Under the pieces are notes generated by a model, which had not been told where the DNA came from, ran no database searches, and saw only the letters and a list, made by a program, of their open reading frames with translations. The position numbers and the translations under genes are program-made. Positions 15,652 to 33,177 of a DNA stretch of 64,000 nucleotides are shown in pieces; positions within the stretch are counted from its first letter, which is position 1, and each line of letters opens with the position of its first letter. Origin of the DNA: an uncultured Chloroflexia bacterium (lineage in GTDB: Bacteria; Chloroflexota; Limnocylindria; Limnocylindrales; CSP1-4); the NCBI GenBank assembly GCA_963768655.1, contig CAVYIM010000006.1, positions 32,001 through 96,000 of the forward strand, in the 5' to 3' direction.

Positions 15652-16923
15652 ATGCCGCTACGGTCCGATTCCGAGAACTTCGCCCTGATACGTGTCATCG
15701 GTGTCGGGGGCGGCGGGTCCAACGCCGTCAACCGGATGATCCGGGCCGAGATGATGGGCGTGGAGTTCATCGCCTGCAATACGGATGCCCAGGCCCTTCT
15801 CCAGTCAGACGCGCCCCACAAGATTCGCATCGGCGACAAGATCACGCGCGGTCTCGGGGCGGGCGGCGATGCCTCCATAGGCCAGCGGGCGGCTGAGGAA
15901 GACGCCGAGAAGATCACCGACGCGCTGCGTGATTCAGACATGGTCTTCATCACGGCCGGACTGGGCGGCGGCACTGGCTCTGGCGCCGCCCCGATCGTAG
16001 CCGAGATCGCTCGGGACCTGGGCGCGCTCACGATTGGCGTCGTTACCAAGCCCTTCGCCTTCGAGGGTGTCCGCCGCAAGCTGGTGGCTGAGCGAGCGGC
16101 CGAAGCTCTCAAAGCCAAGGTGGACACGCTCATCACCATCCCCAACGATCGACTGCGCGACGTCGTCCAGAAGAACACCTCGTTGGTCGAGGCCTTCCGT
16201 TTCGTCGACGACGTCCTGCGCCAGGGCGTCCAGGGGATCAGCGACATCATCACCGTTCCCGGCCTGATCAACCTCGACTTCGCCGACGTTCGAGCCGTCA
16301 TGAAGGATGCCGGGTCGGCCCTGATGGGCATCGGTCGGGCGACCGGCGACAACCGGGCCCTCGACGCGACCCGCCAGGCTATCGCTAGCCCGCTCTTGGA
16401 GATCAGCATCAACGGCGCCCAGGGCATCCTGTTCAACGTCTCGGGCTCGTCCAACCTCAGCCTGTTCGAGGTCACCGAAGCCGCCGAGGAGATCCGCTCC
16501 GTGGCGGATCCGGAGGCGAACATCATCTTCGGCACGAGCTTCGACGACCGCCTCGGCGACGAGGTCATGATCACCGTCATCGCCACGGGCTTCGACGCCA
16601 GTCGCAAGCGCGAGTCCGCGCGGCGAGAGGCGGGTGCGGCCACACCGGGCACCGGCTACTCACAGCGCACGGACACCGCGGACTTCCTGGCGGAGCTGGA
16701 GCGCCAGCGCATCCACTCGGTGGAGCCGGTGCCGGTCCATATGCGGGGCGCGGGAACGTACGGTCCCACGGGCACGCTCGAGCGCGCCCCGGTGCCGGTG
16801 CCGATCCAGACCACGCCATCCGTTCGCCGGCCGCAAGTCGATCGGCCGCGGCCCACCTACGACGACACGGATCTCGAGATCCCGAGCTTCCTGCGGCGGC
16901 CGCCGCAGGAGGAGCAGGCGTAG
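15652..16923 (+). CDS. ftsZ: Cell division protein FtsZ
   Basis: [28 protein letters not shown]-terminal LEIPSFLRR. Confidence 0.98.
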
Positions 16924-16935
16924 CCGCTGGCCGCC

Positions 16936-17661
16936 TTGGCCGGTCCCGATCCCGAAGACGTAGCGGCGTTTTCGGCCGCGCGTGCGCGCCTCCTTTCGGT
17001 CGTCGACAATGCGTGCCGGCGGGTCGGGCGCGACCCTGAGCGCGTCCAGCTCGTTGCCGTCTCCAAGACCGTACCCGCCGTGCGGTTGGGCGCTGCCGTC
17101 GCGGCCGGGCTGACGGTCCTCGGCGAGAACCGTGTCCAGGAGGCCGAATCGAAGGCACCATTGCTGCCGGGCGCGAGCTGGCATCTGATCGGCCCGCTGC
17201 AGTCGAACAAGGCCCGCCGGGCGGTCGAGCTCTTCGACGTCATCGAGTCGGTCGACTCGCTCGATCTGGCACGCAGGCTCGATCGGCTGGCCGGCGAGCT
17301 CGGCCGGGCGCCTCTGCGCATCTATCTGCAGGTGAACGTGGACCGCGACGAGGCGAAGGCCGGCTTTCTGCCCGAAGCCCTGGCGGTGGAGCTGGCCGAG
17401 CTCGCGGGGCTGCCGAATCTGCGCTTGCTGGGGCTGATGACGGTCGGCCGGCTGGTGGGTTCGGCCGAGGAGGCAAGGCCCACGTTCCGGCGGTTGCGGG
17501 AGCTGTCTGGGCGGCTGCGCGGGGCGCCCGGGCTCGGCGCGCCCGGGCTCGGCGCGGGGCTGTCGATGGGCATGACGGACGACTACCCTGTGGCCGTGGA
17601 GGAGGGCGCCACGGTCATCCGCGTCGGCCGAGCCCTGTTCGGGGCGCGGCCGGCCGGGTAG
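16936..17661 (+). CDS. yggS: PLP homeostasis protein
   Basis: LVAVSKT, GENRVQE, HLIGPLQSNK, LSMGMTDDY, IRVGRALFG. Confidence 0.95.
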   Translation: MAGPDPEDVAAFSAARARLLSVVDNACRRVGRDPERVQLVAVSKTVPAVRLGAAVAAGLTVLGENRVQEAESKAPLLPGASWHLIGPLQSNKARRAVELFDVIESVDSLDLARRLDRLAGELGRAPLRIYLQVNVDRDEAKAGFLPEALAVELAELAGLPNLRLLGLMTVGRLVGSAEEARPTFRRLRELSGRLRGAPGLGAPGLGAGLSMGMTDDYPVAVEEGATVIRVGRALFGARPAG

Positions 17662-17748
17662 GGGTGAGCAGGCGTCTGCGGGCCGCCGGGCGGGATGATC
17701 GGGCCGTCGAGTGGCGACTTTACGGAACGCGACCATAATCGGGACGCG

Positions 17749-18064
17749 ATGGAATCCGATTTTCGTTTCGCGGATCGAACGCGCCGCTCGGAGGTTCGAA
17801 TTCGCCGTGCGCCTGACGCCCCGTGGCGGCGCCGATCGAGTCGACGGCGTGAATGAGGAGGGCGTGCTGCAGGCCAGGGTTTCGGCGCCGCCCGTCGGCG
17901 GTGCCGCGAATGCCGCCCTCGTCAGGCTCCTGGCCGATGAGCTGAACGTCGCCCGCAGCGGCGTGCGCCTCGTGGCGGGCGCGACCGGGCGGCACAAGCT
18001 CGTGGTCGTCGAGGGAGTCTCGCCCGAGGAGATCGCGGCCCGCTGGCCCGGCCTCAAGCTGTAG
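17749..18064 (+). CDS. yggU: DUF167/YggU protein, possibly with an extra base near 17800
   Basis: FAVRLTPRG, ARVSAPPVGGAANAAL, GATGRHK. ATG 17749 joins this frame only if one A in CGAATTC is removed; alternative in-frame GTG at 17711. Confidence 0.85.
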
Positions 18065-18106
18065 GGAGTGGCGCCGGCAGGCCGTCCCCGTCGCGGCGTG
18101 GCGCGC

Positions 18107-18372
18107 GCGGCCCCGGCCCAATCGCGGCGCGGCCCCGGCCCAATCGCGGCGCGGCCCCGGCGCGGCCCGAGCTCGGTCGCCCCAGTACGGCCCGGCCCAA
18201 TCGCTTGGGCTCCCCCGGCGCGGCCCGGCCGTCGCCGGCCGTCGCAGCCGGGGCCCGCCCCGGCGCGGCTAGTCGCGGCCCCGGCTGTCGCGGCGAGGCC
18301 CGTCGCGGCCCGAGCTCGGTCGCCCCAGCACGGCCCGGTCCAATCGGCTTGGGCTCCCCCGGCCCAATCGCT
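18107..18372. repeat. GC-rich patchwork of direct repeats
   Basis: 22-bp unit at 18107-28 and 18129-50; ~58-bp unit at 18161-218 and 18304-362; recurring CCAATCG core. Confidence 0.85.
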
Positions 18373-18380
18373 CCGGGGCA

Positions 18381-18575
18381 TCTGGTCAGACTTGCGCCCC
18401 ATGAGAGTTGGAGCGGATGAGACCGCCTCCGGCGTCCCCGGACCGGTCATCGGCCGCCCATCGAGCCCGCGCCCGAGCGTGGCCTTGGTGGTCGCGCGTG
18501 CTCCCGCCGCTTCACCACCCGCTGCAGGGCCGCGATCGGATGGCCAACTTTCGCTCCAGGCAAGTTCGGACCAGA
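18381..18575 (-). repeat. Inverted-repeat-bounded unit, copy A, overlapping the 3' end of the XRE-nuclease gene
   Basis: TCTGGTCAGACTTG-N7-TGAGAGTTG at 18381-410 and a degenerate inverse at 18545-575; homologous along its length to 32900-33123. Confidence 0.9.
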
Positions 18576-19227
18576 AGGCGATGCCGGATTCGGGCCCACG
18601 CTCGGGGTGGAGGAAGAGGGGCCCAAGGGATCTACCGTCTCGCGAGAGGGCCGACCTCAGCAGGGTGCGGTGGTCGGCGACCCTGCGGCGGTTGGTGCTC
18701 GAGGCGGCGACTATCAGCCAGCCACTTACGGATCGGGCCGGCCAACCGCGGCTCGCCGCGATTTGGGCCGCCAGCCGGCGCTTCCGGTCGAGCGTCCCGA
18801 TGAGCTCGTCCACGTCGACGATGGCGGTCTTGAGCTCGATCACCGCGACCGAGCCCGTTGCGGCGTGCCAGGCCAGGAGGTCGATGACTCCGCGCTCGCC
18901 GTAGATGGCGAAGGAAACCTCGGCAACCACGACCCAGCCGGGCCGGCGTGCGATCCAATCAGCGACGTGTTCGCCCAGTGCCGCATGTCGGGCGTTGATG
19001 ACGCGGTCGAACTCGCCGCCGGCTGATCTCGGGACGAGTTCCAGGCTGACGCCGAGCTTCGCCGCGATTCCGCGCAGAACGCGCAGCGATGCCCGATCGA
19101 GTTCGCCGTGCTCCAAGCGAGACACGAGCGCGGCTGACACTCCGGCCTGCGCCCCCAGATCGATCTGACGCAGGCGGCGCCTGACGCGAGCGGCTCTGAG
19201 CGCGAGGCCGAGGTGGAGATCATCCAT
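18447..19227 (-). CDS. XRE-type HTH fused to a PD-(D/E)XK nuclease-like domain (~259 aa; extra base near 18565)
   Basis: HTH LRQIDLGAQAGVSAALVSRLEHG; AEVSF..GERGVIDLLAWH...VIELKT. Removing one base gives FWSDLPGAKVGHPIAALQRVVKRR...GR* with its stop at 18447. Confidence 0.8.
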
Positions 19228-19349
19228 CTACGCCAGGATGGACCGCGCGCCTCAACTTGCACTTATCTGGCGATTGCCCCCACGTCTCCGTGCCCCGCCT
19301 TCGGGCGCCAGGGGCGCGGTGTCGGCCCCGCCTTCTGTCGCCCGCCCGG

Positions 19350-19386: not shown

Positions 19387-19463
19387 GGGCGATTAGCTCA
19401 GCTGGTTAGAGCGCGCGGTTCACATCCGCGAGGTCACTGGTTCGAGTCCAGTATCGCCCACCA
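19387..19463 (+). tRNA. tRNA-Val(CAC)
   Basis: Acceptor stem GGGCGAT/ATCGCCC, D arm TAGCTCAGCTGGTTAGAGC, anticodon loop TT-CAC-AT, GGTTCGAGTCC, encoded CCA. Confidence 0.97.
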
Positions 19464-32863: not shown

Positions 32864-32899
32864 GCCACGAGGCGGCGGGCGGGGCGACAGCCACGACCT

Positions 32900-33123
32900 T
32901 CTGGTCAGACTTGACTGGTGTGAGAGTTGGCCGTCCGATCGCGGCCGTGCGGCGGGTGGTGAGGCGCCGGGAGACAGACGGGCCGCGCGTGTCACGCTCG
33001 GGCGGCAATTCCATGAGCGGCCGGCGACCGGTCCGCCAGCGCTCGGAGCGGCCGGCGACCGGTCACGGGCGCTCGTAGCGGCTCGATCCGTCGCAACTCT
33101 CATGGAGGGCAAGTCTGACCAGA
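32900..33123 (+). mobile_element. Inverted-repeat-bounded unit, copy B (gene-less, MITE/REPIN-like)
   Basis: TCTGGTCAGACTTG-N7-TGAGAGTTG at 32900-29 and CAACTCTCA-N7-CAAGTCTGACCAGA at 33094-123; homologous to copy A; no target-site duplication seen, so mobility is inferred. Confidence 0.65.
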
Positions 33124-33177
33124 TGCCGGGCATGTCCTGCACTGAATAGGGACTCATGGCCTCGGGCCGCGGTCTAT

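Follow-up and report, generated by a model that had tools for sequence, protein, structure and literature searches.

The DNA considered here, referred to as the window, is a stretch of 64,000 nt (G000:C6:32001-96000) from an uncultured Chloroflexota bacterium of the class Limnocylindria, whose assembly (G000) comprises 3.37 Mb in 9 contigs, with a GC content of 69% and a completeness of 88.6%. On its minus strand (18447..19227) the window harbors a gene for a protein in which an XRE-type helix-turn-helix (HTH) domain precedes a predicted PD-(D/E)xK nuclease domain, and the 3' end of this gene runs into a palindromic DNA module. Gene and palindrome belong together as one unit across the whole of the protein family, which is an old and class-restricted gene family in which the 3' end of each member is fused to a structured DNA site. 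The explanation that we favor, and which we regard as evenly poised between right and wrong, is that of a selfish nuclease gene that carries its own cis palindrome; it would be akin to the RAYT/REPIN or Rep/origin systems while falling into neither group, with binding, cleavage, and mobilization being steps that we infer.

Linkage of gene and palindrome across the protein family

Linkage was assessed in a set of 51 genomes of the genus, with loci anchored on the alignment column of a tryptophan that corresponds to W219 of the window protein. The protein family is found in 46 of these 51 genomes, with up to 11 matches per genome, and the window-type unit is detected by BLAST in 15. All 11 of the closest orthologues (68-100% amino acid identity) have a full-length module abutting the end of the gene. 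The YggS, DUF167, and tRNA neighbors are common to the window and to genome G012 only, and 9 of the 11 orthologue units have different surroundings. Where the surroundings differ, the DNA of the units is homologous from around 60 nt upstream of the ATG through to where the distal arm ends. Nine more distant homologues gave no match to the profile of the window-type module.

The arrangement extends beyond this one type of sequence. Genome G000 encodes five members of the family, which are 35-40% identical to each other, and the four besides the window gene do not lie beside window-type units. These four paralogues, and most distant homologues, have a long inverted repeat of their own, with the proximal arm just past the conserved tryptophan; the distal arms of the paralogues are found 140-200 nt downstream, and the arm sequences are unrelated between paralogues. 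The first-pass annotation of this DNA, made from the letters of the sequence, had looked to paralogues for inverted repeats, and its expectation is borne out by these repeats, which differ in sequence and agree in position.

For a test of position, the strict inverted repeat with the best score was sought at each of 80 genus loci by searching 106 nt against the next 320 nt. In 55 of the 80 its proximal arm begins within -6 to +12 nt of the W-column codon (around 18% is expected by chance; binomial p 2.5e-23). The repeat reaches a z score of at least 3 in 40 of the 80, and a control arm drawn from the interior of the gene does so in 0 of 80. The result was replicated in public metagenome-assembled genomes (MAGs), where the position is held in 49 of 77 loci (p 9e-19) and a z score of at least 3 is reached in 33, against 3 for the control. 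When 90 unique hairpins are stacked without gaps, the fraction of Watson-Crick pairs is 0.70 over positions 0-28 as opposed to 0.24-0.26 in slid registers, a comparison that favors the true register in that each register was taken from the best alignment of the locus itself. Many stem positions display three to four pair types across the 90 hairpins, and the arm sequences covary between paralogues. A dip in pairing at positions 15-18 represents an internal loop, and matches the gap of the bipartite motif that is described below for the window. An excess of arm pairing over the product of the arm identities was nominally significant and was left unused, since register shifts in several rows make it unreliable.

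The module of the family can thus be described as an element of around 170-230 nt that sets in directly past the last folded residue of the protein, composed of a bipartite proximal arm of some 30 bp that is translated as disordered protein, a loop that holds a central motif, and a complementary distal arm. Past the distal arm, 39 of 55 family loci have GC-rich tandem repeats, as against 67 of 400 random segments of G000, although this control consists mostly of coding DNA.

The module and the reading frame in the window

In the window the distal arm (18381..18410) is the exact bipartite motif TCTGGTCAGACTTG-N7-TGAGAGTTG, read on the plus strand and located 3' of the stop codon. A search of the window for this pattern with up to three mismatches recovered, besides this copy, only those at 32900-32929 on the plus strand and 33094-33123 on the minus strand, which form an exact inverted pair, whereas 0 matches are expected from 100 shuffles. 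The same search gave no second copy near the nuclease gene. The inverted partner there is a diverged arm, CAACTTTCG-N7-CAAGTTCGGACCAGA, which lies at 18545-18575, contains one extra base, and is separated by 134 nt from the exact arm. Since the segment 18371-18590 aligns end to end with the reverse complement of 32890-33135, the stretch 18381-18575 is one copy of a repeated unit of around 200 nt. The bipartite motif is the outer stem of a palindromic DNA module of around 195 nt, rather than one of two exact copies. Between the arms is the loop (18411..18544), whose gene-proximal part is the translated, disordered tail of the protein, and in the middle of the loop is the central motif (18473..18482; CCACGCTCGG on the gene strand, CCGAGCGTGG on the plus strand).

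The proximal arm (18545..18575), degenerate in the window, sits within the coding tail, where it starts with the first codon after W219 (18573-18571), and it carries the extra base. As assembled, the minus-strand open reading frame (ORF) from 19227 meets a stop only at 16660 and would specify 855 aa. Alignment with the G012 orthologue, which otherwise displays 96% DNA identity over the tail, reveals one inserted G at around 18567, in TTCTGGTCC[G]AACTTG. When this base is discounted the protein has 259 aa and ends at a stop codon at 18449-18447, matching the orthologues, and the correct C-terminal tail persists as an ORF at 18447..18626. The ORFs of the orthologues (259-307 aa) read through the proximal arm as ...GIAFWSNLPGAKV...PRSG...*. 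The exact arm thus seems to be coding only because the insertion of one base shifts the frame and the ORF runs on.

These details alter what had been claimed for the motif. The first-pass annotation had the motif repeated in inverted orientation, with one copy inside the coding sequence at the FWSD codons and the other around 135 bp downstream. The inverted repetition stands, with the exact arm at 18381-18410 and its partner at 18545-18575; the partner is, however, a diverged arm and not a copy, and the two arms had been swapped, as it is the diverged arm that is coding (F-W-S) and the exact arm that lies past the stop.

Folding as single-stranded DNA surpasses that of shuffles only weakly for the window unit (z -2.16, 3/200) and strongly for the gene-less copy at 32898-33125 (z -6.12, 0/200). 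Two further observations concern the same locus. The 855-aa ORF (16660-19227, minus strand) passes antisense through the DUF167 and YggS-like genes, and is an artefact of the frameshift together with the 69% GC content. There is also a perfect 11-bp inverted repeat, in which CCACGCTCGGG (plus strand, 18592-18607) is complementary to the central motif as CCCGAGCGTGG (18470-18484); the CCACGCTCGGG copy sits in the H-P-E-R-G codons, just upstream of the proximal arm.

The central motif of the loop

At the center of the loop, a set distance away from the W-column codon, is CCACGCTC(A/G) or the reverse complement of this motif. Among 136 unique family loci, CACGCTC starts at +91 in 16, while GAGCGTG starts at +92 in 12, at +82 in 11, and at +81 in 6, so that 45 of the 136 have the motif at +91/+92 or +81/+82 in one orientation or the other. 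The exact 7-mer is present somewhere within +75..+100 in 51 of the 136 loci, and a match with no more than one mismatch in 88, against 36 in a control window. The core AGCGT is invariant in 9 of the 9 copies in G000, even where the remaining loop no longer aligns. How the motif is read as protein depends on the subfamily, the translation being P-R-S in some and L-S-V in others, while in still others the motif supplies the TGA stop. Its orientation likewise follows the subfamily, being forward in 22, reverse in 29, and both in 2 of 90. Other intragenic peaks of the central 7-mers are explained by conserved codons (GERG, GTLD, ERGW). Symmetric arms around an asymmetric motif in either orientation are what would be expected of a site that is recognized on its own and not via the gene.

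Across G000 as a whole, flanking inverted repeats with a score of at least 14 are found at 15 of 1171 motif sites, against 1-3 of 425-1364 sites for four control 7-mers, and the motif sites so flanked include solo modules of other subfamilies. Motif-centered inverted repeats whose arms match other module subfamilies were observed at C6:255222, C2:13903, and C3:653609 of this genome; at least the one at C6:255222 resembles a module subfamily for which no resident gene was found among the five family genes of G000.

Constraint at the level of DNA

Were the stem to act in RNA, mismatches compatible with wobble pairing might be expected on one strand. At non-Watson-Crick stem positions 178 G.T and 192 A.C mismatches were counted over 73 family loci, and 36 and 51, respectively, over 33 window-type copies (p 0.13), and neither set has a strand-specific wobble signal for RNA. 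The coding sequence was examined through pairwise differences at the three codon positions of nine intact orthologues. In the nuclease domain these differences are 0.22/0.14/0.52, in the proximal arm they are 0.30/0.29/0.37, with no periodicity, and in the translated part of the loop they are 0.49/0.50/0.51, equal at all three positions. The flatness of these values argues that the tail is free as protein and that the arm is held as DNA. Taken together, the lack of a strand bias in the mismatches and the lack of codon periodicity indicate that the constraint acts on DNA, and not on RNA or protein. The varied translation of the central motif and the predicted disorder of the tail point the same way. 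With Rfam 15, only the tRNA reached the gathering score in the window, and there was no match at E <=1 over 8 module loci.

The protein

The window protein, of 259 aa without the extra base, is defined by its ORFs, an alignment of orthologues, Pfam, and a fold prediction. It consists of the HTH domain (around aa 5-65), a nuclease core (around aa 72-220), and a disordered tail (aa 222-259). The HTH that the first-pass annotation had proposed is confirmed by Pfam over aa 5-65, with HTH_3 at 32 bits (cut-off 23) and HTH_31 at 31.6 bits (cut-off 27). Sequence searches of NCBIfam, PADLOC, and the Protein Data Bank (PDB) gave matches confined to the HTH, and no model in Pfam, NCBIfam, or Rfam covers the nuclease domain or the module. 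The same annotation had pointed to an E..D..ExK nuclease motif, and across 43 aligned sequences with identities as low as 46%, E103, D116, E131, and K133 are indeed invariant and W219 nearly so, with variable sequence after W219. It was also correct in reporting no DDE, HUH, or recombinase signature, as none of these families was matched by the protein in Pfam, NCBIfam, or PADLOC.

The AlphaFold model (mean confidence, pLDDT, 81) has the HTH, a linker, and an alpha-beta-beta-beta-alpha-beta domain that extends to around residue 220, followed by disorder over residues 222-259. The elements of the nuclease core, modeled with a pLDDT of 86-97, are helix 72-93, strands 98-108, 111-121, and 126-133, helix 139-158, and strand 166-174. 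Structure searches with this second domain matched XisH (2okf; Z 9.8, root-mean-square deviation 3.1 over 112 residues), AF1548 (Z 9.6), and NucS (2vld; Z 9.6), as well as the R2 restriction-like endonuclease (RLE; 9dou, Z 8.4), Can2, VC1899, and Card1. Foldseek returned SduA, BstEII, PfoI, and EndoMS, with the Shedu nuclease SduA at the top (E 1e-4, TM 0.24). On this modeled structure the C-terminal domain qualifies as a PD-(D/E)xK domain, having both the core fold and the conserved catalytic residues, and the invariance of those residues is the reason for taking the nuclease to be apparently active. Public protein collections hold 948 relatives, typically of 245-290 aa and labeled as XRE-family regulators, several of which are from Candidatus Limnocylindrales, and matches in the protein atlas are to unnamed Chloroflexota clusters only.

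Taxonomic range

In a sample of 401 genomes spread over the phylum, the protein family is found in 35, all of which belong to two families of one class. The family to which the window belongs has it in 22 of 23 genomes and the second in 12 of 16; it was not found in the other families searched within this sample. The best 80 public loci come nearly all from Chloroflexota or Limnocylindrales MAGs. As judged from the genomes sampled, the gene family is restricted to the class Limnocylindria. A sister family of the same order (G025-G040) consists of 16 genomes of 1.0-1.4 Mb, in which the module pattern is seen in 0 of 16 and the protein family in 0 of 4 sampled. A literature search, at the level of search results, returned no publication about the gene family.

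Gain, loss, and gene-less copies

Gene and module, together around 0.9 kb, are gained and lost as one unit, and module-only copies persist between genes. In the window the unit has an approximate 5' leader (19228..19268, minus strand), given that homology between units begins around 60 nt upstream of the ATG, and it lies between a DUF167 gene and a tRNA-Val(cac) gene (19387..19463, plus strand) that serves as the landmark of the insertion site. The insertion adjoins the end of what we take, from the translations, to be a cell-division cluster, with genes that are FtsZ-like (15652-16923), YggS/YlmE-like (16936-17661), and DUF167-like (17711-18064), the three having been used as BLAST probes. 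This site is empty in 21 of 24 genomes of the genus, in which tRNA-Val begins 71-166 nt after the DUF167 stop. At the filled site, tRNA-Val is found at +1323 in G000 and at +1148 in G012, and a decayed copy occupies the same place in G046. The comparison of empty sites that the first-pass annotation had suggested therefore reveals units that are present or absent between related genomes.

Alignment of the empty-site spacers places the ancestral spacer in the approximately 118 nt that adjoin the tRNA. A GC-rich flank with short tandem repeats (18068..18380), absent at empty sites, separates the DUF167 stop from the distal arm. It contains a 22-nt repeat in 2.6 copies at 18105-18161 (100% matches) and a 15-nt repeat in 6.3 copies at 18216-18309, and the 22-nt unit (...GGCCCAATCG...) resembles a stretch of the tRNA-Val promoter (...CCGGTATAATCG...) across the insertion. 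In the closest relative, G012, the corresponding flank repeats the tRNA-promoter spacer in direct orientation and in diverged form (score 31, against 18.5 +/- 2.6 for shuffles, 0/500).

A second paralogue unit (C5:207979-208560) is syntenic in most of the genus and cleanly absent in G011, G062, G003, and G023; the gaps at these four sites are of 67-291 nt and hold no remnant hairpin. The window also contains a solo module, that is, one with no gene (32900..33123, plus strand), in which both arms are exact and which is located between convergent genes for an ACT-domain protein and a YciI-like protein. This site is filled in G000 and G042, and is empty in G012, where 17 nt separate the stop codons, and in G005, G004, G006, G044, and G009.

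With an iterated nhmmer profile, 9 full and 1 partial window-type units were recovered from the 3.37 Mb of G000, mostly in short intergenic spacers, and the genome-wide search for the motif called for at the outset has hence turned up more than two copies. A census of 40 unique window-type modules placed 6 next to a full-length gene and 1 next to a broken one, the other 33 being without a gene; 10 of these 33 keep a stub of the gene from profile positions 193-211, and 23 have no protein signal. Solo copies end at TCTGGTC...GACCAGA, with up to around 18 nt of gene-side sequence in addition. Stem pairing is 0.83 in solo copies (n=28) and 0.85 in gene-linked copies (n=5). Paralogues within a genome are 35-60% identical. 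An ORF beside one solo module (G000:C4:80985-81395), which starts VTTQTRARHTAADFLAFLREIERAYPQGELAVVLDNVSSH, may be a fragment of an IS630-family transposase.

A proposed selfish nuclease gene and its alternatives

If the gene is selfish, then the module would be the cis site of its own nuclease. The protein would recognize the symmetric arms, or a hairpin or cruciform formed by them, and would nick or cut at or near the central motif. The breaks so formed would drive the spread or the retention of the unit, and solo modules would remain after loss of the gene, or would be copied without it. The gene-plus-module unit looks like an undescribed kind of slow selfish element in the Chloroflexota of soil and peat. 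A bolder proposal can be offered tentatively, as a possibility that we hold to be somewhat less likely than not. This is a new class of selfish elements, in which an HTH-PD-(D/E)xK nuclease would cut a hairpin or cruciform at the end of its own gene (the arms plus CCACGCTC(A/G)), copy or retain the unit, and leave hairpin-only copies behind, as the first non-HUH counterpart of RAYT/REPIN or Rep/origin.

Several observations weigh against a selfish element. The window gene, being frameshifted, may be a pseudogene or carry an assembly error. The stubs of gene at solo copies indicate that these may be relics of lost genes and not independently mobilized, REPIN-like units, and at the solo site of the window the remnant of the gene's 3' end is longer by around 130 nt in G042 than in G000. 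No consistent target-site duplication is seen at 28 solo copies. There are no near-identical copies within a genome, and the 35-60% identity of paralogues gives no sign of recent bursts. A long flank duplication is not general, the score for own flanks being 13.1 against 12.4 (p 0.76, 48 loci), and only the window locus in G012 and locus L054 stand out. The upstream regions of the genes and their own arms have no motif in common (40 loci; own 7.05 against 6.74, p 0.24). Finally, the synteny of the paralogue on C5 is consistent with slow vertical descent and may point to a function for the host.

This last point leads to the idea that the protein is a host regulator or defense nuclease, that the palindrome is its regulatory or protective cis site, and that presence and absence reflect the turnover of accessory genes. 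In its favor are the synteny of one paralogue across most genomes of the genus, the age and divergence of the paralogues, the top Foldseek match to Shedu SduA, even if its TM is only 0.24, and the resemblance of the HTH to those of CapH and antitoxins. We nevertheless consider it rather unlikely, as PADLOC matches are limited to the HTH, the units have no conserved partner genes and lie in unrelated contexts, upstream regions and arms are without a common motif, and gene-less modules persist with their pairing (0.83 in 28 copies) close to that of the gene-linked ones (0.85 in 5). The structure could alternatively act at the level of RNA, as an mRNA 3' stem-loop (a terminator, a stabilizer, or a control on translation of the tail) or, by analogy with type I toxin-antitoxin systems, through an antisense RNA transcribed convergently. 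Such a function would suit a structure that is placed at the 3' end of a gene and overlaps its stop codon, that folds better than shuffles, and whose window copies lie between convergent genes; it is made unlikely by mismatches in which those compatible with G.U are not in excess over A.C on either strand, by a central motif that occurs in both orientations relative to the gene, by loops of 110-170 nt that are unlike those of intrinsic terminators, and by the absence of a module match in Rfam for the window and the 8 loci searched (E <=1).

The protein could also be a MOBC-type relaxase that, as with TraX of pAD1, nicks an inverted-repeat origin of transfer (oriT), in which case the unit would be mobilized by a conjugation system. 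The order of domains, HTH then PD-(D/E)xK, is the same, and the units have an inverted repeat with a central motif as well as direct repeats close by. However, type IV coupling protein (T4CP) and VirB4 families (PF02534, PF03135, PF12696) were not found in G000, an assembly that is 88.6% complete, and a tblastn search of 72,556 plasmid records with the 259-aa orthologue gave no match at E <=1. Moreover, genomes carry 1-11 diverged chromosomal copies as single genes in chromosomal contexts, and the direct repeats are not the same even in orthologues with 96% identity, those at the window locus being derived from duplicated target DNA, all of which renders this account very unlikely. An invertible DNA switch, whose arms would be recombination sites and whose flipping segment would alter the C-terminal tail or an outward promoter, has in its support the inverted repeats of some 30 bp that flank 110-170 bp and the central motif that lies in either orientation at the same position in different subfamilies. 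It is highly improbable given that in all the window-type copies with flanks, of which 28 are solo and 5 gene-linked, the loop has one orientation relative to the distinguishable arms and that the unit is without a recombinase; the orientation of the motif follows the subfamily, so any flips are rare evolutionary events. Hardly credible at all is an unrelated miniature inverted-repeat transposable element (MITE) or REP-like repeat that inserted by chance into the 3' end of the window gene alone. The nine full and one partial copies in G000, mostly intergenic, and the possible IS630-like transposase fragment beside one of them would agree with it, yet the same codon position is occupied with different arms in paralogues of 35-60% identity across two families, as the position test attests, and the inverted ends are unaccompanied by a consistent target-site duplication at the 28 solo copies.

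A selfish gene with its own cis palindrome would, if real, bring an enzyme fold and a geometry that are new among the elements that pair an endonuclease with a hairpin, which include RAYT/REPIN, IS200/IS605, rolling-circle Rep origins, and relaxase/oriT. It would also explain the recurrent palindromes, tandem repeats, and small indels in Limnocylindria, which are abundant and uncultured bacteria of soil and peat. Should specificity be confirmed, the lineage-specific arms of around 30 bp and their cognate HTH-nucleases would constitute a set of structure- or sequence-specific DNA cutters. The tail is in addition a clear example of a coding sequence that is shaped by constraint on DNA and not on protein.

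Comparison with known systems

According to two published accounts (PMC12857230, PMC6736028), MOBC relaxases are PD-(D/E)xK enzymes with an N-terminal HTH, and TraX binds five direct repeats located 70-120 bp from nic. With the MOBC relaxases and their oriT (pAD1 TraX, CloDF13 MobC), the likeness lies in the N-terminal HTH joined to PD-(D/E)xK and in a cis site made up of a large inverted repeat with short direct repeats. The units described here differ in that no conjugation genes were found in G000 and no homologues among the plasmid records searched, and in that the copies are chromosomal, multiple, and diverged. Details of the inverted repeat in the pAD1 oriT are reportedly given by Francia and Clewell in 2002.

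XisH, the excision-controlling factor of the fdxN element (2okf), is the best structure match of the nuclease domain, and is likewise a small PD-(D/E)xK-like protein linked to DNA rearrangement. It has no HTH fusion and works with a serine recombinase and XisI, and it is not known to be accompanied by a 3' palindrome. The attC sites of integrons are imperfect palindromes at the 3' ends of genes, which they often overlap, and their structure is conserved while their sequence varies. The module described here is similarly an imperfect 3' palindrome in which structure is kept as sequence varies, but attC sites occur in arrays next to an integrase, behind cassette genes that are unrelated to each other, whereas the module accompanies one gene family in lone units with no integrase involved.

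Rolling-circle Rep origins and the ends of IS200/IS605 elements are acted upon by HUH nucleases, and consist of short hairpins with a conserved cleavage motif. As in the present units, a stem-loop in the DNA that has a short conserved motif at the apex or close to it adjoins the gene of its nuclease, which in the present units is a candidate; the latter differ in their PD-(D/E)xK fold and in a hairpin of around 200 nt.

The analogy with RAYT transposases and REPINs, which had been drawn from the beginning, holds for the tie between a gene and palindromes and for the existence of gene-less copies, and fails in that there is no HUH/Y1 domain and that only one side of the gene has the repeats. 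The enzyme here combines an HTH with PD-(D/E)xK, and the palindrome is 3' only, overlapping the coding sequence, whereas a RAYT gene is flanked by REPs on both sides. One long hairpin, with arms of around 30 bp, a loop of 110-170 nt, and a central motif, takes the place of REPs of 20-40 bp; in contrast to the high copy number of REPs, there are around 10-15 copies per genome, together with several diverged paralogues. The two systems nonetheless resemble each other in that a nuclease-type gene is tied to lineage-specific palindromes, gene-less units of which are scattered between genes, and in a slow, largely vertical evolution with occasional gain and loss.

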